Of a DNA stretch of 64,000 bases, positions 2,393 to 9,978 are shown piece by piece. Made by a program: the position numbers and the translations under genes. Source of the stretch: an uncultured Clostridia bacterium. Its GTDB lineage: Bacteria; Bacillota; Clostridia; TANB77; CAG-508. The stretch's first letter is position 1. Every line of letters begins with the position of its first letter. Where the stretch lies: assembly GCA_947585105.1 (NCBI GenBank), contig CANPWV010000001.1, positions 2,875 to 66,874 on the forward strand. The letters run 5' to 3'. Under the pieces are notes generated by a model. The model was not told the DNA's origin and ran no database searches. It worked only from the letters and a program-made list of their open reading frames with translations.

Positions 2393-3348
2393 ATGTATTA
2401 TAAGAAATTGAGACTGGGAGAGGTCGAACTTGAGAATAATTTAATATTGGCGCCGATGGCTGGAGTTACAGATTTGGCTTTTAGAAGGATTACAAAAAAG
2501 TATGGAAATCCGGGTCTTGTTTGTAATGAAATGGTTAGTAGCAAAGCGATTTGCTATGAAGATGGAAAAACTCTTGAAATGTTGAAATCAGAAAATGAAA
2601 GCCCAATTTCTATGCAAATTTTTGGAAGTGATCCTGAAAGTATGGGAAAGGCTGCTCTTGAAGTAAGTAAGCTTTGTGACATTTTAGATATAAATATGGG
2701 TTGCCCGGCTCCAAAAGTCGTAAAAAACGGCGATGGAAGTAAACTTTTAACTGATTTAGGATTAGCGAGAACTGTAATTCAAGAAGTTGTGAAAAATTCT
2801 TTAAAACCTGTTACTTTAAAAATAAGAAAAGGTTGGAGTAATGAAAATTTGGTTTATAAAGAAATTTCCAAAATTGCCGAAGAAGAGGGAGTAAAGGCGA
2901 TAATTGTTCACGGAAGAACAAGGCAAGAATTTTATTCTCGGTCAAGCAGACTGGAACTCAATAAAAGAAGTAAAAGAAAGTGTTTCAATTCCAGTAATTC
3001 GGAAATGGCGATATAGTGGACGAAGAGACGGCTTTGGAGATTTTTGAAGAAACAGGGTGCGATGGAATAATGATAGGGCGAGCTTCGTTGGGAAATCCTT
3101 GGATTTTCATGAGAATCGCTAGATTTTTGGAGACAGGTGAGAAATTGCCAGAAATATCAGATGAAGAAAAGCTCAGAGTTTTAAAAGAGCATTTCGAACT
3201 TTTATTAGAAGAAAAAGGAGAATACACTGCAACTCGCGAAATCAGAAAGTTTGTAGCTTGGTATGTCAAAGGAATGAAAGATGCTAGGCGATTCAAAGAG
3301 AAAATGAATACTATAGATTCTGTAAAAAGTTTTTATGATATATTTTAA
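2393..3348 (+). CDS. dusB: tRNA-dihydrouridine synthase (DusB-like). Continuous only with +1 shifts at in-frame CGG 2939-2941 and 3000-3002.
   Basis: Dus family motifs are present (LAPMAGVTD, HGRTR, IPVIxNGDI, MIGR). ORFs 2393..3016 and 3016..3348 plus a 60-nt middle frame join into ..EFYS-G-QADWNSIKEVKESVSIPVI-G-NGDIVDEE... Confidence 0.8.
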
Positions 3349-3384: not shown

Positions 3385-3978
3385 TTGAAAAAAATATACA
3401 TAATTTTGGCGATAATTGTACTTTTAATTTTTTCGATTTTTTATTATAAAAAATCAAAACTGGGAAATACTATAATTAAATTAAGTGAAGAAAATATTGA
3501 AAATATTTTAAGTGAAAATTTGAAATATGAAGCAAAAGCTAAAGTGAAAATTTATAGTAACAAAAATGAAAATGAATATAGCCTAAAAATCAAGGAAGAG
3601 AAAGATTATAGTTTGCTTGAAACTATTGGAAAAAGTGATATTTCAGGTTTAAAAATTGAAAAGAAAAATGGAGATTTAATTATAAAAAATGGAGAACTGA
3701 AATTAACGAAAATATACGAAGATTATAATGAATTTACAGATAACAGTTTGCTTTTAACAACTTTTTTAGAAGAATATAAAGAGTCAAAAGCAAAAGAAGT
3801 TGTAAAAGAAAACGGGAAAATGGTAGTAAAAATCGAGGTAAAAGACTACAACAAATACATAAAATATAAAGAACTTTATTTGAACGAATCAGATGGAAAG
3901 CCTGAAAAGCTTGTGATAAAAGACAGTGGCAAACAAGTTAAAATCATCATAGAATATACAAATATAGAAATATTATAA
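3385..3978 (+). CDS. Hypothetical membrane-anchored Lys-rich protein
   Basis: N-terminal transmembrane segment, good RBS (aaggagg) and no recognisable domain. It occupies the position where a MazE-like antitoxin would be expected. Confidence 0.5.
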   Translation: MKKIYIILAIIVLLIFSIFYYKKSKLGNTIIKLSEENIENILSENLKYEAKAKVKIYSNKNENEYSLKIKEEKDYSLLETIGKSDISGLKIEKKNGDLIIKNGELKLTKIYEDYNEFTDNSLLLTTFLEEYKESKAKEVVKENGKMVVKIEVKDYNKYIKYKELYLNESDGKPEKLVIKDSGKQVKIIIEYTNIEIL

Positions 3979-4024: not shown

Positions 4025-4378
4025 GTGAATATTATGGTAATAAGAAGAGGAGATATGTTTTATGCGGATTTAAGCCCAGTTGTAGGATCTGAGCAGGGAG
4101 GAATTAGGCCAGTTTTGATTATTCAAAATGACACTGGAAATAAATATAGCCCAACAGTAATTGCCGCAGCGATTACATCCCAAACTGGTAAAGCTAAACT
4201 TCCAACTCATATAGAAATTTCATCAAGCGAAAATGGGTTAAAATCAGATTCTGTTGTTTTAACAGAGCAAATTAGAACAATAGACAAAAGTAGATTAAAA
4301 GAAAAGATAGGCCATATTGAAGATGGAAAGCTAATGGATAAAGTAAATGGCGCAATAGGTATAAGTTTCGGATTATAA
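4025..4378 (+). CDS. mazF: MazF/EndoA (PemK family) mRNA interferase toxin
   Basis: Strong similarity to the Firmicutes EndoA/MazF pattern ([29 protein letters not shown]...KLPTHIEI...[13 protein letters not shown]). Confidence 0.85.
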
Positions 4379-4411: not shown

Positions 4412-4433
4412 GGTTAGTATCCAATCTTGCTAA

Positions 4434-4469
4434 CATCAAGATTATATCACATTTTACAGAATATTGCAA
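4434..4469 (-). promoter_or_regulatory. Outward-facing sigma70-type promoter (TTGCAA-17-TATAAT with TGn extended -10). Left arm of a ~45-bp inverted repeat.
   Basis: The sequence is the reverse complement of the promoter at 5277..5305. Its downstream transcript would be only ~55 nt and would end at the 4381..4411 hairpin. Confidence 0.45.
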
Positions 4470-4639
4470 AACTTGATATTTTGCTTAAAATGATGTATAA
4501 TGTTGAAACAATATATTTTATATTTATATATATATATTCAATTTCCTGTTTTCACTAATTAGTGAGAGGGATTTCCTCTAACTTTTTGGTTTAACATATA
4601 TAAATAAGCAACAATAAAAGAATGTAAGGAGGACTTTAC

Positions 4640-4903
4640 ATGGTAGTATCATCTGTTATTTATCTTCTCTTGGCTGAAGCAATTTTAAGTGGTACAGGTT
4701 TAGTTTTTATGTTTGCTAAGAACAGAAAAACTTTTAGTAAGATAATTCGGATAATTTGCGCCATCTTGGTCATATTAATCGCGGTTTCTATAATACCACT
4801 GCAAATGGCAATGGGAAGATTCTATGGATCTCAAATTTTAATAATTTTTTGTATGGTTATTAATCTAATTGTTGCTACTATGGAATTAAAAGAAAAAAGA
4901 TAA
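4640..4903 (+). CDS. Hypothetical small membrane protein (87 aa). Contains in-frame CGG at 4748-4750.
   Basis: Two predicted TM helices and a terminator directly after the stop. Under the CGG +1 rule it would terminate right after the CGG (..KII-G-stop). Confidence 0.35.
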   Translation: MVVSSVIYLLLAEAILSGTGLVFMFAKNRKTFSKIIRIICAILVILIAVSIIPLQMAMGRFYGSQILIIFCMVINLIVATMELKEKR

Positions 4904-4917
4904 ACTACCTTAAAAAA

Positions 4918-4958
4918 AGAAAATATTTCTTTTCCTCGTAAGAGGTTTTTCTTTTTTT
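4918..4958 (+). terminator. Rho-independent terminator (cctcgtaagagg + T-run). Member of a repeated terminator family.
   Basis: Hairpin plus a T8 run. Related copies sit at 7090..7125 and 8828..8868. Confidence 0.5.
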
Positions 4959-5088
4959 ATAACAAAATTGACATAACCATATAAAAAAGATTATTGAAAA
5001 TCTAAAAAAATAAAGTTTTTACATTGCTTTTCAATTCCTCTCACTTTTCGAAACAAAAAAGAGATATGTTTATTCATATCTCTTAATT

Positions 5089-5171
5089 TGGTGCGGGTGA
5101 GAGGACTTGAACCCCCACGGTTGCCCACTAGATCCTAAGTCTAGCGCGTCTGCCAGTTTCGCCACACCCGC
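5089..5171 (-). tRNA. tRNA-Leu (anticodon UAG) with a long variable arm, encoded CCA end, own promoter and terminator
   Basis: Reverse complement reads GCGGGTGTGGCGAAACTGGCAGACGCGCTAGACTTAGGATCTAGTGGGCAACCGTGGGGGTTCAAGTCCTCTCACCCGCACCA. Acceptor, D, anticodon (CT-TAG-GA), long variable and T arms are all recognisable. TTGACA-17-TAATAT lies upstream on the minus strand, and the hairpin at 5056..5086 lies downstream. Confidence 0.85.
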
Positions 5172-5276
5172 GATTAACAATAATAATATTAACACTTTAA
5201 ATCTAGATTGTCAAGTGTTTTTATATATTTTCATAATCAATTTTGTCTTTAAAAACTAGATATAAATCTCTAAATT

Positions 5277-5305
5277 TTGCAATAATCTGTAAAATGTGAT
5301 ATAAT
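5277..5305 (+). promoter_or_regulatory. Sigma70-type promoter TTGCAA-17-TATAAT (TGn extended -10). Right arm of the inverted repeat.
   Basis: ttgcaataatctgtaaaatgtgatataat. A related promoter (ttgctttttatgtaaaattgtgatataat) lies at ~6612..6642. Confidence 0.5.
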
Positions 5306-5380
5306 CTTGGTGTTAGCAAGGAATTGCTTTCTTATTCGCCCGTTCTTTAAAGAACGATTTCGTCCTTAGGGGGTGAAAAT

Positions 5381-6297: not shown

Positions 6298-6482
6298 TAT
6301 TACTCATATTGCTTTATTTTTCGTTGATGGAAAGTATCATAATATAATATATTAAAATAATAGAAGGTGCAGGTAAAAATATAAAGAATATAATTATGGA
6401 GAGGAAAGATAACTTACAATTTTTATGGGGATTTTATGTTTTTATAAAAACATATTTCTTTATAAAATGAAAAAAATATCAT

Positions 6483-6606
6483 TTGACAAAATTAAATAAT
6501 CTATGTATAATAAATATAGGAAATGACAATTCCACAAACGTGGTTTTGCCAAGATATAGTTTTAATAAACCATTAGCTCGGCCAAGCAGAATGGTTTATT
6601 TTTTAT
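6483..6606 (+). ncRNA. Candidate small RNA E1: perfect TTGACA-17-TATAAT promoter, ~85-nt transcript, intrinsic terminator. Paralogue of the antitoxin-like sRNA at 7888..8014.
   Basis: The 5' 40 nt are identical to those of E2 and E3 (aaatataggaaatgacaattccacaaacgtggttttgcc) and are followed by hairpin aaaccatt..aatggttt plus a T-run. The minus strand retains only a start-less remnant ending ..KQLHK*. Confidence 0.4.
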
Positions 6607-6747
6607 TTATGTAGTTGCTTTTTATGTAAAATTGTGATATAATATGACAGTAATATTCGTAGGTACAACGAATTATAATAAATGTACCGCTTTCATTATC
6701 TTTTACATTTATTATTGTAATTGAGCGTGAATGCTGTTGGAGGAATT

Positions 6748-7071
6748 ATGTGTCAAACCAATGAAAAATCCACAGAAACCATGAAATGTAACTGCAAACA
6801 ACTCTGCTGTAAAATGCAGAACGCTAGCCTTCGGTGTGCTATTGCTAGTTTAAAAAATTACCAGTATAATAGTAACACTATTTTAAGAATTCTAGAAACT
6901 ATTGAAAATTTGTTAACAGTGTATTCTTGCTTGCCTGGTACTTGCTTACTCAAAAGGGTACAATGGGTATACCATAACATAGCAAGAGGCACTGATCCCT
7001 TATGGAATGACGAAAAGGTTAAGGTAAATATGTTGATTTCAGAATTGGAGACATTTTTAGGCAACAGCTAA
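6748..7071 (+). CDS. Hypothetical Cys-rich protein (108 aa). Contains in-frame CGG at 6832-6834.
   Basis: RBS ggagg and an ATG at 6748. It is preceded by a promoter of the tgtgatataat family and followed by a terminator right after the stop. Under the CGG +1 rule the product would be a 34-aa Cys-rich peptide. Confidence 0.35.
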   Translation: MCQTNEKSTETMKCNCKQLCCKMQNASLRCAIASLKNYQYNSNTILRILETIENLLTVYSCLPGTCLLKRVQWVYHNIARGTDPLWNDEKVKVNMLISELETFLGNS

Positions 7072-7089
7072 ACCACAAAAAAGAAAATG

Positions 7090-7125
7090 ATTTCTTTTCC
7101 TCGAAAGGGGTTTCTTTTTTTTTTA
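7090..7125 (+). terminator. Rho-independent terminator (repeat-family copy)
   Basis: cctcgaaagggg hairpin plus a T10 run. Confidence 0.45.
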
Positions 7126-7315
7126 TTTAAAATAATATTAATTACAATTTCAAGAAATTTTTCATTTGGTAAGTTATTGCTTTTAGGACAGAAATATGTT
7201 AAAATTTGAATACATATTCTTATATGTAATATTATTAGGAGATGGCAATATTCTTGAGAAAGAAGAATTTTAAATAATATGAATAATAATTCTTTATAGA
7301 AAAGGAGGGGAAGGT

Positions 7316-7891
7316 ATGCAACATTTTAAAAAGTTAGTAGGAGATAATATTTATTTGTCACCAAAAGGTGTATCAGACGAAGAAATAGAGAAGTTTACTG
7401 AATGGATGAACGATTTTCAAGTTACAGATTATACTGGAAGAAGTGGGCAAATAGTAACATTAAGTGAAGAAAAGGAATGGCTTGAAAATTCAGTAAAAAA
7501 TACAAGTAATAGAAACTTTAACATTATTGAATCAAAAGATAATAAATTAATTGGAACTGTTGGATTAGAAAAAATTAATTGGATTGAGAGAAACGCAGTT
7601 CTTGGAATATTTATTGGAGATACTGATTATAGAAATAATGGCTATGGAACAGAAGCTATAAAGCTATTGCTAGAGTATGGCTTCAGATATTTAAATTTGC
7701 ATAGTATTAGATTAGACCTTCTTTCTATAAATGAAAGAGCTCATAAATGTTATCTAAAATGTGGATTTAAAGATACAGGAAAAAGCAGAGAAGAAATATT
7801 TTTAAATGGAAAGTATTATGATAAATTACATATGGACATACTTGAAAGCGAGTTTGAAGGGGATTATATTAGAAATAAAAATATCATTTGA
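7316..7891 (+). CDS. GNAT family N-acetyltransferase
   Basis: GNAT fold motifs are present (..NxxSIRLxxKxGFK..). Confidence 0.75.
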   Translation: MQHFKKLVGDNIYLSPKGVSDEEIEKFTEWMNDFQVTDYTGRSGQIVTLSEEKEWLENSVKNTSNRNFNIIESKDNKLIGTVGLEKINWIERNAVLGIFIGDTDYRNNGYGTEAIKLLLEYGFRYLNLHSIRLDLLSINERAHKCYLKCGFKDTGKSREEIFLNGKYYDKLHMDILESEFEGDYIRNKNII

Positions 7892-8014
7892 CAAAGTTAA
7901 ATAATCTATGTATAATAAATATAGGAAATGACAATTCCACAAACGTGGTTTTGCCGAAATTAGTTGTAAAAACTCACACCTAACTCGCCAAAGTACAGAT
8001 GTGAGTTCTTTTTA
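7888..8014 (+). ncRNA. Candidate antitoxin-like small RNA E2 (promoter TTGACA-17-TATAAT at 7888-7916, ~90-nt transcript), convergent with and overlapping the 3' end of the peptide gene 8012..8125
   Basis: Perfect consensus promoter, a conserved 5' domain with a ccacaaacgtgg hairpin, and a bidirectional terminator (aactcaca..tgtgagtt + T-run) shared with the opposite-strand peptide mRNA. Confidence 0.45.
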
Positions 8015-8125
8015 TTTATGTAGTTGCTTATCAACCCAGTTCTTATAAAGAACTGTAGCTAAGGCAACGTTTAATGTTAAAGATATTAAAAATGATGTTA
8101 TAAAAAATAGTATTACTTTAACCAT
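8012..8125 (-). CDS. Type I toxin-like small hydrophobic peptide (37 aa, MVKVILFFITSFLISLTLNVALATVLYKNWVDKQLHK). Not in the ORF track.
   Basis: RBS aaggtggtg lies 8 nt before the ATG. The product has a single TM helix and a charged C-terminal tail. It is transcribed convergently with the sRNA and shares its terminator, an Fst/TxpA-like architecture. Confidence 0.45.
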   Translation of the reverse strand: MVKVILFFITSFLISLTLNVALATVLYKNWVDKQLHK

Positions 8126-8461
8126 AAACATCACCACCTTTCCTACGAAGATTCGTGAAAATGGTGGCAAAACCACATCTGCTTATTATCATTTCCTATA
8201 ATAGCTACTATACAACATTATTAAATGGAATACAAGCGAACAAAACAAATTTTTTGAAATTTTTTTTAATATATATTAACAATGCAAAATTAAGAGATAT
8301 GAATTAACATATCTCTTTTTTTAAATTAAAGCTATTGTTAAATTTCATAAAATATGAGTGTTGCAATTTTGAATAAAACGTGCTATAATTGTTGTGTATG
8401 AGTTTTCTCGTATTTAAAGGCACTATTTAACTAAGTCAACAATTTTAAGGAGGTCTTTCTT

Positions 8462-8809
8462 ATGAAAAAAGAAGTTATACTTGTGCCAAAGGATAAGTGT
8501 CCATTGGATGTCTTGGTTGAACTGGGTGATCGGGTAAAAAATTCGTGGTTTTTCTTGCACAAAAATGCATACGAAAAGCTACTAAAAATGAACATCGGCC
8601 ATATGAAGTTCAACATCTTGAATTCACCGGAAAGAATGTGTATTACGTTGAAGAATGAAAACAAAGAATCTCCTGATACGGTGATTTTCTGTGATATTCC
8701 TCGGCCAACTTGGGGGCAAATAACTTCAATAGATGCACCTAATATTGCATATTATGGAGTGCGTCCCTTTGATCCGGAAGACATCTATTTCTTGAAAATG
8801 GATGAATGA
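8462..8809 (+). CDS. Hypothetical protein (115 aa). Contains in-frame CGG at 8531-8533 and 8702-8704.
   Basis: Own promoter (TTGCAA-17-TATAAT at ~8357..8390), RBS ggagg, and a terminator directly after the stop. No recognisable domain. Confidence 0.4.
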   Translation: MKKEVILVPKDKCPLDVLVELGDRVKNSWFFLHKNAYEKLLKMNIGHMKFNILNSPERMCITLKNENKESPDTVIFCDIPRPTWGQITSIDAPNIAYYGVRPFDPEDIYFLKMDE

Positions 8810-8827
8810 CTTATTTTTTAAAAGTAA

Positions 8828-8868
8828 AACATTTTCTTTTCCTCTTTCTTTTGAAAGAGGTTCTTTTT
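8828..8868 (+). terminator. Rho-independent terminator (repeat-family copy)
   Basis: cctctttcttttgaaagagg hairpin plus a T-run. Confidence 0.45.
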
Positions 8869-8875
8869 TAAAAAT

Positions 8876-9062
8876 ATCATTAATAATCTATATACAATAA
8901 ATATAGGAAATGACAATTCCACAAACGTGGTTTTGCCGAAATCAGTTGTAAAAACTCACACCTAACTCGCCAAAGTACAGATGTGAGTTCTTTTTATTTA
9001 TGTAGTTGCTTATCAACCCAGTTCTTATAAAGAACTGTAGCTAAGGCAACGTTTAATGTTAA
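8876..9062 (+). repeat. Degenerate third copy (E3) of the sRNA/toxin element
   Basis: About 95% identical to 7905..8090. The -35 region is deleted (-10 is TACAAT). On the minus strand only the 3' half of the toxin ORF remains (..LTLNVALATVLYKNWVDKQLHK*). Confidence 0.45.
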
Positions 9063-9216
9063 GATACAAAATTAAGAGATATGAATTAACATATCTCTTT
9101 TTTAAATTAAAGCTATTGTTAAATTTTATAAAATCTAGTATAATACTAATATAAGTAAATTTTGAAAAAACTTGATGAAATAATGGAAAAATAATTTAAA
9201 AAAGAGGAAATTAATT

Positions 9217-9978
9217 ATGTTTGATGCCGAAAAAATAGCTAATGAAATAATAGAATTTATTAGAAATTATTATAAAGAAAACAATTTAAAAGGTGCTGTA
9301 GTTGGTATTAGTGGTGGAAAAGACTCTGCTGTAGTTTCTGGTTTATTTACTAAAGCTCTAGGAAAAGAGAATGTTACAGGTATTTGGATGCCTTGCCATT
9401 CTAAAGAAGAAGATAAAAGAAACGCGTTAGAGTTAGCTAGCCATTTTGGATTTGAATTAAAAGAGTTTGATTTAACAAATATCTATGATTACTATGTTAA
9501 TCAATTTTCTAAATTAAATAATCCTAATATGGATGATTTGATTGATTCTAATATAAATATTAAACCTAGACTTAGAACTACAACTTTATATTATTATTCT
9601 AGTTATTTGAGCAAAAAGAACAAGGGAACATATCTTGTAGCCGGAACTAGTAATAAATGTGAAATCTATGTTGGCTACTTTACTAAAGGTGGAGATAATG
9701 TCGCTGATATTCAAGTTTTAGCTGATTTAACTGTAGACGAAGTTATTTCAGTTGGTGAAGCAATTGGAGTTCCTTACCATATTGTTCATAAGACGCCTGA
9801 TGATGGGTTAAGTGGATTAAGCGATGAAGACAAGCTTGGCGTAAAATATAGTGAAATTGCCGATGTTATTGAAAATGACGGAAAAAATACGGAAGAAGAA
9901 ATAAAACAAAAAATTAATAATTTACATCAAAGAAGTTATCATAAATCTAATATACCAACATTTAGAAAAAATAGATAG
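9217..9978 (+). CDS. nadE: NH3-dependent NAD+ synthetase
   Basis: PP-loop SGGKDS motif and NadE-like sequence throughout. Confidence 0.9.
   Translation: MFDAEKIANEIIEFIRNYYKENNLKGAVVGISGGKDSAVVSGLFTKALGKENVTGIWMPCHSKEEDKRNALELASHFGFELKEFDLTNIYDYYVNQFSKLNNPNMDDLIDSNINIKPRLRTTTLYYYSSYLSKKNKGTYLVAGTSNKCEIYVGYFTKGGDNVADIQVLADLTVDEVISVGEAIGVPYHIVHKTPDDGLSGLSDEDKLGVKYSEIADVIENDGKNTEEEIKQKINNLHQRSYHKSNIPTFRKNR

Follow-up and report, generated by a model that had tools for sequence, protein, structure and literature searches.

A probable type I toxin-antitoxin module of uncultured gut Clostridia with a convergent small RNA and a predicted end-locked toxin mRNA

Introduction

What is encoded by a 330-base stretch of clostridial DNA that carries a perfect consensus promoter on one strand, a very short hydrophobic reading frame on the other and an 11-nt sequence repeated between the two? 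The stretch lies in a window of 64,000 nucleotides (the whole of the DNA analyzed) from an uncultured Clostridia bacterium and is unannotated because its open reading frame (ORF) is short. Its context is chromosomal, with housekeeping genes around it. An original prediction, made from the sequence alone, had likened it to the par and txpA/ratA toxin-antitoxin loci. Judged from its sequence and that of its relatives, the stretch is most likely a type I toxin-antitoxin module in which the gene for a 37-residue membrane peptide, whose toxicity we infer, is silenced by a convergent small RNA (sRNA).

Results

On the plus strand, the promoter TTGACA-17-TATAAT at 7888-7916 is the sole 12/12 consensus match within positions 6500-9500. 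It would drive an antitoxin sRNA of ∼90 nt (7921-8011, plus strand), for which the predicted fold begins with an unpaired 5′ tail (7921-7931), continues through a 5′ hairpin (7932-7953) and an A/U-rich linker and ends in a terminator hairpin (7971-8007) with a U run behind it. The minus strand carries the putative toxin ORF at 8012-8125 (37 codons plus stop), the product of which is MVKVILFFITSFLISLTLNVALATVLYKNWVDKQLHK; an alternative in-frame ATG at 8131 would yield 39 residues. A Shine-Dalgarno (SD) sequence, AGGTGG, can be read at 8139-8134, 8 nt before the ATG at 8125. The predicted toxin promoter, TTGTAT-17-TATAGT (8207-8235, minus strand), was likewise read from the sequence and is conserved in related loci, with a family consensus of TTGATT-17-TATACT; it is weaker than the consensus promoter of the sRNA. 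Between the two genes lies a shared hairpin (∼7964-8011, both strands) with U runs on both strands, which would act as the sRNA terminator and provide a perfect antisense overlap of 47 nt. The original prediction had named the promoter, a peptide with one transmembrane helix and a charged tail, its ribosome-binding site, an RNA of ∼90 nt ending at a shared bidirectional terminator and a 3′ overlap of ∼50 nt, and all of these were recovered, although both promoters and all RNA ends at the module are themselves model predictions.

Peptide homologues share 72-95% identity; for the divergent relatives, identity to a reference peptide that is itself divergent is 42-61%. Variability at codon positions 1, 2 and 3 of the ORF was 0.040, 0.007 and 0.074, respectively (3 > 1 >> 2), which is a coding pattern indicative of purifying selection on the protein; no variation, even of the synonymous kind, occurs in the last six codons. 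The peptide has one hydrophobic span (maximum of 2.35 in a Kyte-Doolittle window of 19 residues) and a charged tail, and AlphaFold2 modeled it as a single helix (residues 2-37, pLDDT 95). The suggested resemblance to Fst, TxpA and Ldr peptides found no profile match at permissive thresholds. Searches of Pfam (E ≤ 1), NCBIfam (E ≤ 10) and PHROGs profiles returned sub-threshold noise only (e.g. PMP1_2, E = 0.078), and the peptide matched neither Fst_toxin (Pfam), nor the Fst models of NCBIfam, nor HOK_GEF. Rfam covariance models gave no hit to the locus at gathering scores and only noise within 6400-9200 at E ≤ 10. No significant match in Pfam, NCBIfam, PHROGs or Rfam pointed to homology with BsrG/SR4 or TxpA/RatA, whichever of these families those libraries hold, and a text search of the literature for motifs of the peptide found none. 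The toxin and sRNA thus appear to form a sequence family without a match in any library or paper searched. A leader ORF (MIISRCGF..., 8118-8192) was considered as a mok-like element and rejected because the frame is lost in relatives.

The module was found at 329 places in species-representative genomes, and among the matches listed, 80 of 80 loci belong to uncultured gut Clostridia or related Bacillota. The hosts are low-GC gut Clostridia from humans, rabbits and ruminants. Several metagenome-assembled genomes carry multiple copies, dispersed in unrelated contexts. Module length was 271-281 nt in 38 close and ∼11 divergent relatives; immediately beyond the −35 box of the sRNA promoter, conservation drops to the background level, and on the toxin side it fades over ∼60-120 nt upstream of the start. 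A contig end adjoins the module in 15 of the 80 listed loci, and 46 of the 55 collection blocks with an identical peptide consist solely of contigs under 2 kb: the module often breaks metagenome assemblies. Searches of phage and plasmid sequences by blastn and tblastn yielded no real match, and viral contigs gave one match in 2.9 million.

Within the window, the promoter and 5′ part of the sRNA occur three times (6472-6555, 7877-7960 and 8859-8942); the window therefore holds one intact copy (copy B, described above) and two decayed copies, both of which lost the peptide gene and kept the sRNA side. Orphan copy A (6483-6606, plus strand) consists of a perfect promoter (6483-6511), an sRNA and the last few toxin codons. 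Its sRNA carries the other terminator allele, the stem of which (AAACCATT..AATGGTTT) is the type-2 allele of loci L010, L011 and L043, and it shows no overlap pairing with the hairpin of the copy-B mRNA, i.e. it is non-cognate. Copy C (8859-9062, both strands) is 98% identical to 7900-8080. Here, the sRNA (8903-8992, plus strand) has lost its −35 box but still pairs perfectly with the copy-B mRNA, and the toxin remnant comprises the last 22 codons (8994-9062, minus strand).

Equivalents of the sRNA promoter, TTGAC(A/T)-17-TATAAT or TAAAAT, are kept in all related loci, and per-sequence folds of 29 relatives retained the two-domain structure of the sRNA. The stem of the 5′ hairpin occurs as at least five different sequences (among them CCAC/GUGG, CCGU/ACGG, AAUUGCA/UGCAAUU and AAUCGCA/UGCGGUU) and that of the terminator as at least four, with compensatory changes in both hairpins. 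The possibility that the plus-strand RNA is the 5′ leader of a downstream mRNA was excluded: given that a terminator ends the sRNA and that the downstream genes vary between loci, the sRNA is evidently not a leader.

If it ended at the shared hairpin, the toxin mRNA would be 238 nt long, and the fold of this short form has a z score of −7.1. Across 38 sequences, 99.1% of cells in the consensus structure of the toxin mRNA are paired. The SD is paired with an upstream GCCACC in every fold, and this GCCACC/GGUGGU pairing is retained, with A-U to G-U changes. The mean unpaired probability of the SD and AUG was 0.09-0.24 in all modeled states and lineages. Accessibility of the SD did not differ among the free, sRNA-bound and short forms, and the modeling did not predict an activation step. 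A tightening of the SD helix like that of bsrG was unsupported, accessibility being equal in all three modeled forms. Most internal helices of the mRNA gave no covariation signal in the close family because they are invariant. Six pairs in the stem of the shared hairpin show changes at both partners within the family. The hairpin occurs as two stem alleles, which vary while the peptide is identical, and locus L011 has both terminator alleles with the same toxin.

The 11-mer GTGGTTTTGCC occurs 4 times in the window, against 0.27 expected. The original prediction placed its minus-strand copy correctly at 8166-8176, but the plus-strand copy, put at 7955-7965, actually lies at 7945-7955. The 11-mer is part of inverted arms of 34-37 nt, 7921-7957 (plus strand) and 8199-8163 (minus strand). 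The 5′ arm of the toxin mRNA (8163-8199, minus strand) reads ATAGGAAATGA..GTGGTTTTGCC, then the anti-SD GCCACC at 8168-8163, and has almost the same sequence as the 5′ end of the sRNA. An analogy of this motif with the par repeats is not supported: the repeat is inverted, so both RNAs have the same sequence there and do not pair with each other through it. For pairing in trans between the sRNA 5′ domain and the ribosome-binding region, RNAduplex gave only loose solutions with large loops. An SprA1AS-like trans action of this domain was dropped, given the absence of compact RNAduplex pairing with the mRNA.

The complement of the sRNA start (7921-7957, minus strand) is fully antisense to the sRNA 5′ domain and would form the 3′ arm of a long read-through toxin transcript of 279 nt, complementary to the transcript's own 5′ arm. 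This arrangement implies that the 11-nt motif belongs to a 5′-3′ end-to-end helix of this longer, likewise conjectural, toxin transcript; the 5′ ends of the sRNA and the mRNA would resemble each other since each of them is the complement of one and the same 3′ arm. The predicted fold of the long form, in which nt 1-34 pair with nt 245-279, has a minimum free energy of −106.7 kcal/mol and a z score of −12.4, whereas the fold of the opposite strand of the same unit reaches −73.6 kcal/mol. In 14 modules of seven lineages, which are a closely related and partly non-independent sample, the arm helix is more stable on the toxin strand by 4-20 kcal/mol; with one module taken per lineage, 27 G-U pairs were counted on the toxin strand versus 6 on the other. 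The wobble tally inside the close family alone is too small to decide. The arms also change in concert, from GTGG to ACGG in L090, from TTTT to TTT in L092 and from ATAGGAAAT to GTAGAAGTT in L108, a pattern to which gene conversion between the inverted repeats may have contributed. The differences between arms are strand-asymmetric wobble changes and so point to selection on RNA. RNAalifold found little or no consensus in MAFFT alignments of the divergent members, which were instead compared through folds of the individual sequences and through named structures. The cognate sRNA-mRNA duplex was calculated at −83 kcal/mol, the perfect overlap being 47 nt for the predicted RNAs and ∼90 nt with the long mRNA form.

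On the toxin strand, the hairpin of the window copy has a 19-bp stem followed by UUUUU, a good intrinsic terminator, such that most toxin transcripts may stop before the 3′ arm. The type-1 allele has 4-5 U at this point, whereas the type-2 alleles and L095 have no U run on this strand and other lineages have poor ones. Downstream of the 3′ arm, no clear terminator was found on the toxin strand.

Discussion

Sequence comparison gives good support for placing the locus in a type I toxin-antitoxin-like class, in which an sRNA converges on a gene for a small hydrophobic peptide and overlaps its 3′ end. This part of the original prediction stands on a block conserved in hundreds of loci, on variation of the coding type and on a hidden SD and start codon; a par-like reading of the 11-nt motif is not supported. 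We consider it probable that the whole is best explained as a chromosomal type I module with an end-locked read-through toxin mRNA and a 3′-antisense sRNA. The weak minus-strand promoter (8235-8207) would yield a highly structured mRNA for the 37-residue, single-helix membrane peptide, in which the upstream GCCACC would hold the SD and a downstream stretch of the coding region would hold the start codons. Part of toxin transcription would pass the shared hairpin up to the sRNA start, and the last ∼35 nt of the resulting 279-nt RNA would pair with its first ∼35 nt to give an inert, locked form; this end pairing is likened to helix P1 of the bsrG mRNA, the tac/fbi stem of hok and the 5′-3′ interaction of aapA1. 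The consensus promoter (7888-7916, plus strand) would supply the ∼90-nt sRNA, perfectly antisense to the 3′ end of the toxin mRNA. By covering the hairpin and the 3′ strand of the end helix, the sRNA would form a long duplex, most likely cut by RNase III, and the mRNA would be exposed to decay. The results behind this scheme were obtained in silico and concern the anatomy of the module, its conservation and covariation, the coding signal and the strand asymmetry; the transcript ends, the nuclease and the trigger of translation are inferences.

An unlikely alternative, though one to be taken seriously, is that the module is of type I but its toxin mRNA invariably stops at the shared hairpin as the 238-nt form, that the sRNA acts through the 47-nt 3′ overlap only, as in txpA/RatA, and that the 5′-end similarity has another cause, such as a site for one protein or RNase in both RNAs, an initial transcribed sequence that they have in common, or pairing of the two 5′ ends with the last toxin codons. 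The 4-5 U that follow the toxin-strand hairpin in the window copy and the type-1 allele would suit it, as would the invariance of the last six codons even at synonymous sites and the short-form pairing between the 5′ block AUGUGGUU and AACUACAU, which lies in the terminal part of the ORF. Neither a protein site nor a DNA-level function predicts, however, that G-U pairs should be kept on the toxin strand only, as they are in 7 of 7 lineages, and type-2 alleles and L095 do without a toxin-strand U run. Pairing of both 5′ motifs with the last toxin codons is weakened because in L090 both arms changed from GTGG to ACGG while the proposed third site, GCAACTACAT, did not change.

Many small membrane proteins share the composition of this peptide. 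This fact, the lack of homology to characterized toxins and the chromosomal site among housekeeping genes would also fit a non-toxic small membrane protein (e.g. a transporter regulator or a stress peptide) tuned by a cis-antisense RNA and forming no addiction module. We regard such a role as improbable in view of the dispersed copies, several per genome and in unrelated contexts, the decayed copies in which the sRNA side outlived the peptide gene, the layered sequestration of translation signals, the pairing of a consensus sRNA promoter with a weak peptide promoter, and the allelic variation of the RNA-RNA interaction region alongside an identical peptide. Dispersed multiple copies, survival of the sRNA side, sequestered translation, promoter imbalance and an allelic interaction region all typify loci of type I toxins (PMC6563280, PMC8594479). 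That the unit is a miniature transposable element, whose 35-nt inverted arms are bound by a transposase and whose ORF and hairpins are incidental, seems very improbable, despite the constant length, the inverted arms, and the many copies per genome with their varied insertion contexts and assembly breaks. Conservation runs past the arms through both promoters, so that the arms are not terminal; an informal look at the printed flanks revealed no target-site duplications; the ORF is under purifying selection at the protein level; and the arms differ by strand-asymmetric wobble changes.

Beyond the end-locked module with its 3′-antisense sRNA, a bolder proposal can be made, one that we hold tentatively and think somewhat less likely to be right than wrong. 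The module may be a palindromic, self-contained transcription unit of 280 nt in which G-U wobble lets one duplex encode two RNA folds: the toxin-strand arms would close the mRNA end to end, and the bases of the other strand would form the 5′ hairpin of the antitoxin. In that case the antitoxin would mimic the mRNA 5′ end and compete for the fold-back element, the start of each RNA would set the end of the other, and the unit would have spread as a selfish repeat in uncultured gut Clostridia. If this is true, the wobble-coded double fold and allelic switching of the shared hairpin would make a compact and portable design.

The module adds a putative toxin/sRNA pair, unmatched in the libraries and papers searched, at hundreds of places in uncultured gut Clostridia. 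With seven lineages, a hairpin in two alleles and wobble pairs that are strand-asymmetric, the variation among its copies is unusually informative and amounts to a natural mutational data set on the interplay of end-to-end mRNA locking and 3′-antisense control. The sRNA could mark these uncultured lineages, and the module would be usable as a counter-selection tool if the peptide is toxic.

In the par locus of the Enterococcus faecalis plasmid pAD1 (Fst/RNA I-RNA II), a toxin mRNA and an sRNA converge on a common bidirectional terminator, the Fst peptide of ∼33 residues has a transmembrane helix and a charged tail, and each of the two RNAs has repeat blocks at its 5′ end (PMC8167048). The present module shares the convergent genes, the common bidirectional terminator and the general type of peptide. 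The par blocks are direct DNA repeats, which makes the two RNAs complementary at these blocks and lets them pair across the ribosome-binding region; by contrast, the blocks described here are inverted, the two RNAs have the same sequence and RNAduplex gave no compact pairing.

In hok/Sok of plasmid R1 and aapA1/IsoA1 of Helicobacter pylori, pairing of the 5′ and 3′ ends closes the full-length mRNA and makes it translationally inert, and 3′ trimming with refolding then gives the active form (PMC9841398, PMC5416894). The 34-bp end helix predicted here would have the same structural role. Unlike the antitoxins of those systems, which are antisense to the 5′ part of their mRNAs, the sRNA would be antisense to the 3′ portion of its mRNA, with the fold-back element itself included; moreover, the hosts of those systems are Gram-negative and their toxins are not homologous to the peptide.

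The bsrG/SR4 system of the Bacillus subtilis SPβ prophage has a hydrophobic toxin of 38 residues encoded by an almost fully structured mRNA of ∼294 nt, in which helix P1 pairs nt 1-35 at the 5′ end with nt 232-262 at the 3′ end and the SD lies in a double-stranded region (PMC3834814). SR4 is complementary to the bsrG 3′ end, covers the 3′ strand of P1, has the stronger promoter and brings about RNase III-dependent decay (PMC3834814). The corresponding features here are a 37-residue peptide, the 279-nt putative long form, an end helix of ∼34 bp and an sRNA antisense to the 3′ strand of that helix, this antisense cover being predicted only if the toxin transcript reaches 7921. Unlike in bsrG/SR4, the shared hairpin sits between the ORF and the 3′ arm rather than after the arm, the sRNA is ∼90 rather than ∼180 nt long and does not overlap the ORF, and the context is chromosomal rather than that of a prophage; peptide and RNA have no detectable sequence relationship to any curated family. 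Given that the sRNA start coincides with the arm end, the unit is also flanked by inverted arms, as bsrG/SR4 is not.

The modules of Clostridioides difficile (CD2517.1-RCd8 and others) consist of convergent overlapping genes, present in several copies per genome, with toxins of 34-59 residues that have an N-terminal transmembrane segment and a charged C terminus and with antitoxins that are cognate-specific (PMC6563280). Compared by description, the present module shares with them its occurrence in Clostridia, the convergent overlap, the small membrane peptide and the multiple copies. The C. difficile modules lie in prophages or beside CRISPR arrays and have Sigma B promoters, whereas the module described here resides on the chromosome among housekeeping genes and has promoters of the σ70-type consensus.

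The peptide gene and the predicted convergent sRNA

The minus-strand open reading frame described in the original prediction is present at 8012-8125 and encodes MVKVILFFITSFLISLTLNVALATVLYKNWVDKQLHK, the putative toxin. A Shine-Dalgarno (SD) sequence, AGGTGG, lies 8 nt before the ATG at 8125, a second in-frame ATG is found at 8131, and a plausible promoter, TTGTAT-17-TATAGT, occupies 8235-8207 (-). About 6 nt upstream of the -35 box of the latter is an A/T-rich palindrome-like box, caaaaaatttgtttt (8241-8256, -), which most related loci keep and which may act as an operator or as an UP element. The peptide comprises one hydrophobic span followed by the tail YKNWVDKQLHK and was modelled by AlphaFold2 as a single helix (pLDDT 95). 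Among relatives, the minor-allele fraction was 0.040 at the first codon position, 0.007 at the second and 0.074 at the third, a pattern suggestive of coding, and the amino acid changes fell in the N-terminal half and exchanged one hydrophobic residue for another. Even at synonymous sites, no variation was seen in the first five or the last seven codons, which points to constraint at the RNA level. In a consensus mRNA structure built from 38 sequences, 99.1% of cells were standard pairs. Here, the SD was paired with GCCACC, with variation in that helix limited to A-U to G-U changes, the start codons were paired with the codons for SLTLNV, and six terminator pairs were altered on both sides. The SD was closed in every state modelled.

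On the plus strand, the perfect TTGACA-17-TATAAT promoter claimed at 7888-7916 was recovered as the sole 12/12 match within 6500-9500. The 90-nt sRNA predicted to start at ∼7921 has two hairpins: a small one (CCAC-AAAC-GUGG plus flanking pairs) preceded by an unpaired 5′ tail, and the terminator hairpin at 7971-8007, which follows an A/U-rich linker and leads into a U run. Both hairpins are retained among relatives via compensatory changes, the 5′ stem occurring as CCAC/GUGG, CCGU/ACGG, AAUUGCA/UGCAAUU or AAUCGCA/UGCGGUU and the terminator as four stem types. The proposed overlap of ∼50 nt between the convergent RNAs at their common terminator is borne out by the predicted ends, which give 47 nt within the shared hairpin and a duplex of -83 kcal/mol.

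Inverted arms and strand asymmetry

The window has four occurrences of the 11-mer GTGGTTTTGCC, compared with 0.27 expected; the plus-strand copy adjoining the ORF sits at 7945-7955, and not at 7955-7965 as originally reported. This motif belongs to a block of 34-37 nt with which both RNAs begin in nearly identical form (ATAGGAAATGA, 12-13 nt, GTGGTTTTGCC), forming inverted arms at 7921-7957 (+) and 8199-8163 (-). Given that the 5′ sequences are the same rather than complementary, the par-type arrangement that had been proposed does not apply, the arms being unlike DRa/DRb (PMC8167048). With RNAduplex, the 5′ domain of the sRNA showed no compact pairing to the mRNA. Across divergent lineages the two arms change in concert: GTGG becomes ACGG in both arms of locus L090 (compensated by CCGU in the sRNA hairpin), TTTT becomes TTT in L092, and ATAGGAAAT becomes GTAGAAGTT in L108, while the arms of L095 have just AATTGCC in common.

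Read-through of the shared hairpin to the sRNA start would give a 279-nt toxin RNA, nt 1-34 of which are predicted to pair near-continuously with nt 245-279. The minimum free energy of this long form was -106.7 kcal/mol (z -12.4), compared with -73.6 kcal/mol (z -6.9) for the opposite strand of the same DNA (279 nt). A value of -70.0 kcal/mol was obtained for the 238-nt short form ending at the shared hairpin, and a similar 249-nt stretch of minus-strand RNA folded far more strongly than its shuffles (z = -7.1). Wherever the aligned arms of the window copy differ (four sites: U/C, G/A, G/A and U/C), the toxin strand has a G-U pair and the opposite strand an A-C mismatch. The helix was compared between strands in 14 modules representing seven lineages: that of the toxin strand was more stable by 4-20 kcal/mol and held 1-5 G-U pairs, with 3-5 in all but one module, as against 0-2 on the other strand; with one module taken per lineage, the totals were 27 and 6. 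Such wobble asymmetry points to selection on a toxin-strand RNA that holds both arms. The strand-asymmetric G-U pairs are at odds with arms that serve as a site in DNA or as a shared protein site. In the window copy, the toxin-strand hairpin is predicted to be an effective terminator, so that most toxin transcripts there may be of the short form. In other alleles and in L095 the U run is missing on the toxin strand. No evident terminator was found past the 3′ arm.

Copies and genomic surroundings

The promoter and the 5′ part of the sRNA occur three times in the window, at 6472-6555, 7877-7960 and 8859-8942, and 7900-8080 is 98% identical to 8882-9062. Of these, only copy B, at 7877-8235, is intact. 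In copy A (6483-6606), the promoter is perfect, the sRNA carries another terminator stem and no more than the last few toxin codons remain; copy C (within 8859-9062) has lost the -35 box and all but the last 22 codons. By computed pairing, the copy C sRNA still matches copy B mRNA perfectly, and that of copy A does not.

The surroundings are ordinary chromosome of ∼28% GC (MinE, RodA/FtsW, Dus, tRNA-Leu, a GNAT acetyltransferase, NadE and NadD). Housekeeping genes appear split or truncated in 1532-2212 and 2393-3348 (Dus in two ORFs, 2393-3016 and 3016-3348; FtsW/RodA as a fragment), through either frameshifts in the organism or assembly errors. A PemK/MazF-like type II toxin gene (4025-4378, +; Pfam E = 2.5e-35) lies ∼3.6 kb upstream of the module, directly preceded by an ORF (3385-3978) with no Pfam match. 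A 49-nt inverted repeat, 94% complementary (4426-4474 and 5272-5320), comprises a promoter-like TTGCAA..TGATATAAT and, after it, the hairpin CTTGgtgttagCAAG, present twice and facing outwards; the two copies enclose tRNA-Leu (5089-5171, -) and an 87-aa membrane ORF (4641-4904), and the left copy is aimed antisense at the end of the mazF-like gene. Two families of repeated intergenic terminator hairpins were also observed, one (AAGAGATATG-loop-CATATCTCTT; 5061-5086, 8292-8317 and 9074-9099) flanking the toxin-antitoxin copies and the other of GAAAAGG/CCTCTT type (4907-4958 and 7072-7123).

Distribution and boundaries of the module

Close peptide homologues (72-91% identical) were exclusively of metagenome origin. 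When a single genome was scanned for each species, 329 places were found; the 80 listed were all in uncultured gut bacteria (rabbit, goat, sheep, deer and human hosts) labelled Clostridia, Clostridiales, Clostridium sp. or Bacillota, with single cases of Bacilli or Tenericutes, and in 15 of these 80 a contig ended ≤250 nt from the ORF. Several metagenome-assembled genomes carried multiple copies. The identical peptide, P0014, was found in 55 collection blocks, in 46 of which the longest contig was <2 kb, as expected of a dispersed repeat in short-read assemblies. Against 1.84 billion representatives, a profile search matched just 24 clusters; the family is narrow, and its divergent members shared 42-61% identity with P0045, itself a divergent reference peptide. 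Plasmid and phage records gave no match, and L090 (IMGVR_UViG_3300045988_168928) was the sole module in 2.9 million contigs classed as viral.

Conservation is ∼90% throughout the unit and falls to background right outside the sRNA -35 box; on the toxin side, upstream of the start, it declines gradually over some 60-120 nt. The distance from RNA start to RNA start is 271-281 nt, divergent lineages included. Two shared-hairpin alleles accompany the same toxin, which fits an RNA-RNA specificity determinant. Locus L011 carries both, in modules at 2932-3208 and 4703-4980 with identical toxin peptides, and this pair suggests that antitoxin specificity is diversifying. Variant arrangements were seen in one metagenome contig (protein P0017), where the 5′ motif of the toxin is preceded, in tandem and on one strand, by a 5′ motif of the sRNA type, and in L092 (2330-2413), which carries two modules in tandem.

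Proposed mechanism and comparison with known systems

No curated family in Pfam, NCBIfam, PHROGs or Rfam matched the peptide or sRNA by sequence, and a text search of the literature returned no paper with the peptide motif. Judged from sequence, the architecture is that of a Gram-positive-style, 3′-overlapping type I toxin-antitoxin system (PMC8594479) with a putative toxin and predicted transcript ends. Here, the long toxin mRNA would be an inert form locked end to end. An abundant sRNA, antisense to its entire 3′ untranslated region, would make a duplex of ∼90 bp that sets off cleavage and decay. Under this proposal, the resemblance between the 5′ ends of sRNA and mRNA follows simply from their complementarity to one and the same 3′ arm.

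Among known systems, bsrG/SR4 comes nearest to the proposed arrangement. In bsrG mRNA, helix P1 is formed by nt 1-35 and nt 232-262; SR4, the antitoxin, has complementarity to the 3′ end and opens P1, decay depends on RNase III, and of the two promoters that of the antitoxin is stronger (PMC3834814). The end-to-end lock is also reminiscent of those of hok (tac/fbi; PMC9841398) and aapA1 (PMC5416894). The module would be an instructive variation on this kind of system: on the predicted transcripts, the 3′ untranslated region contains the shared hairpin and the sRNA begins exactly where the arm ends, and wobble pairs distinguish the two strands.
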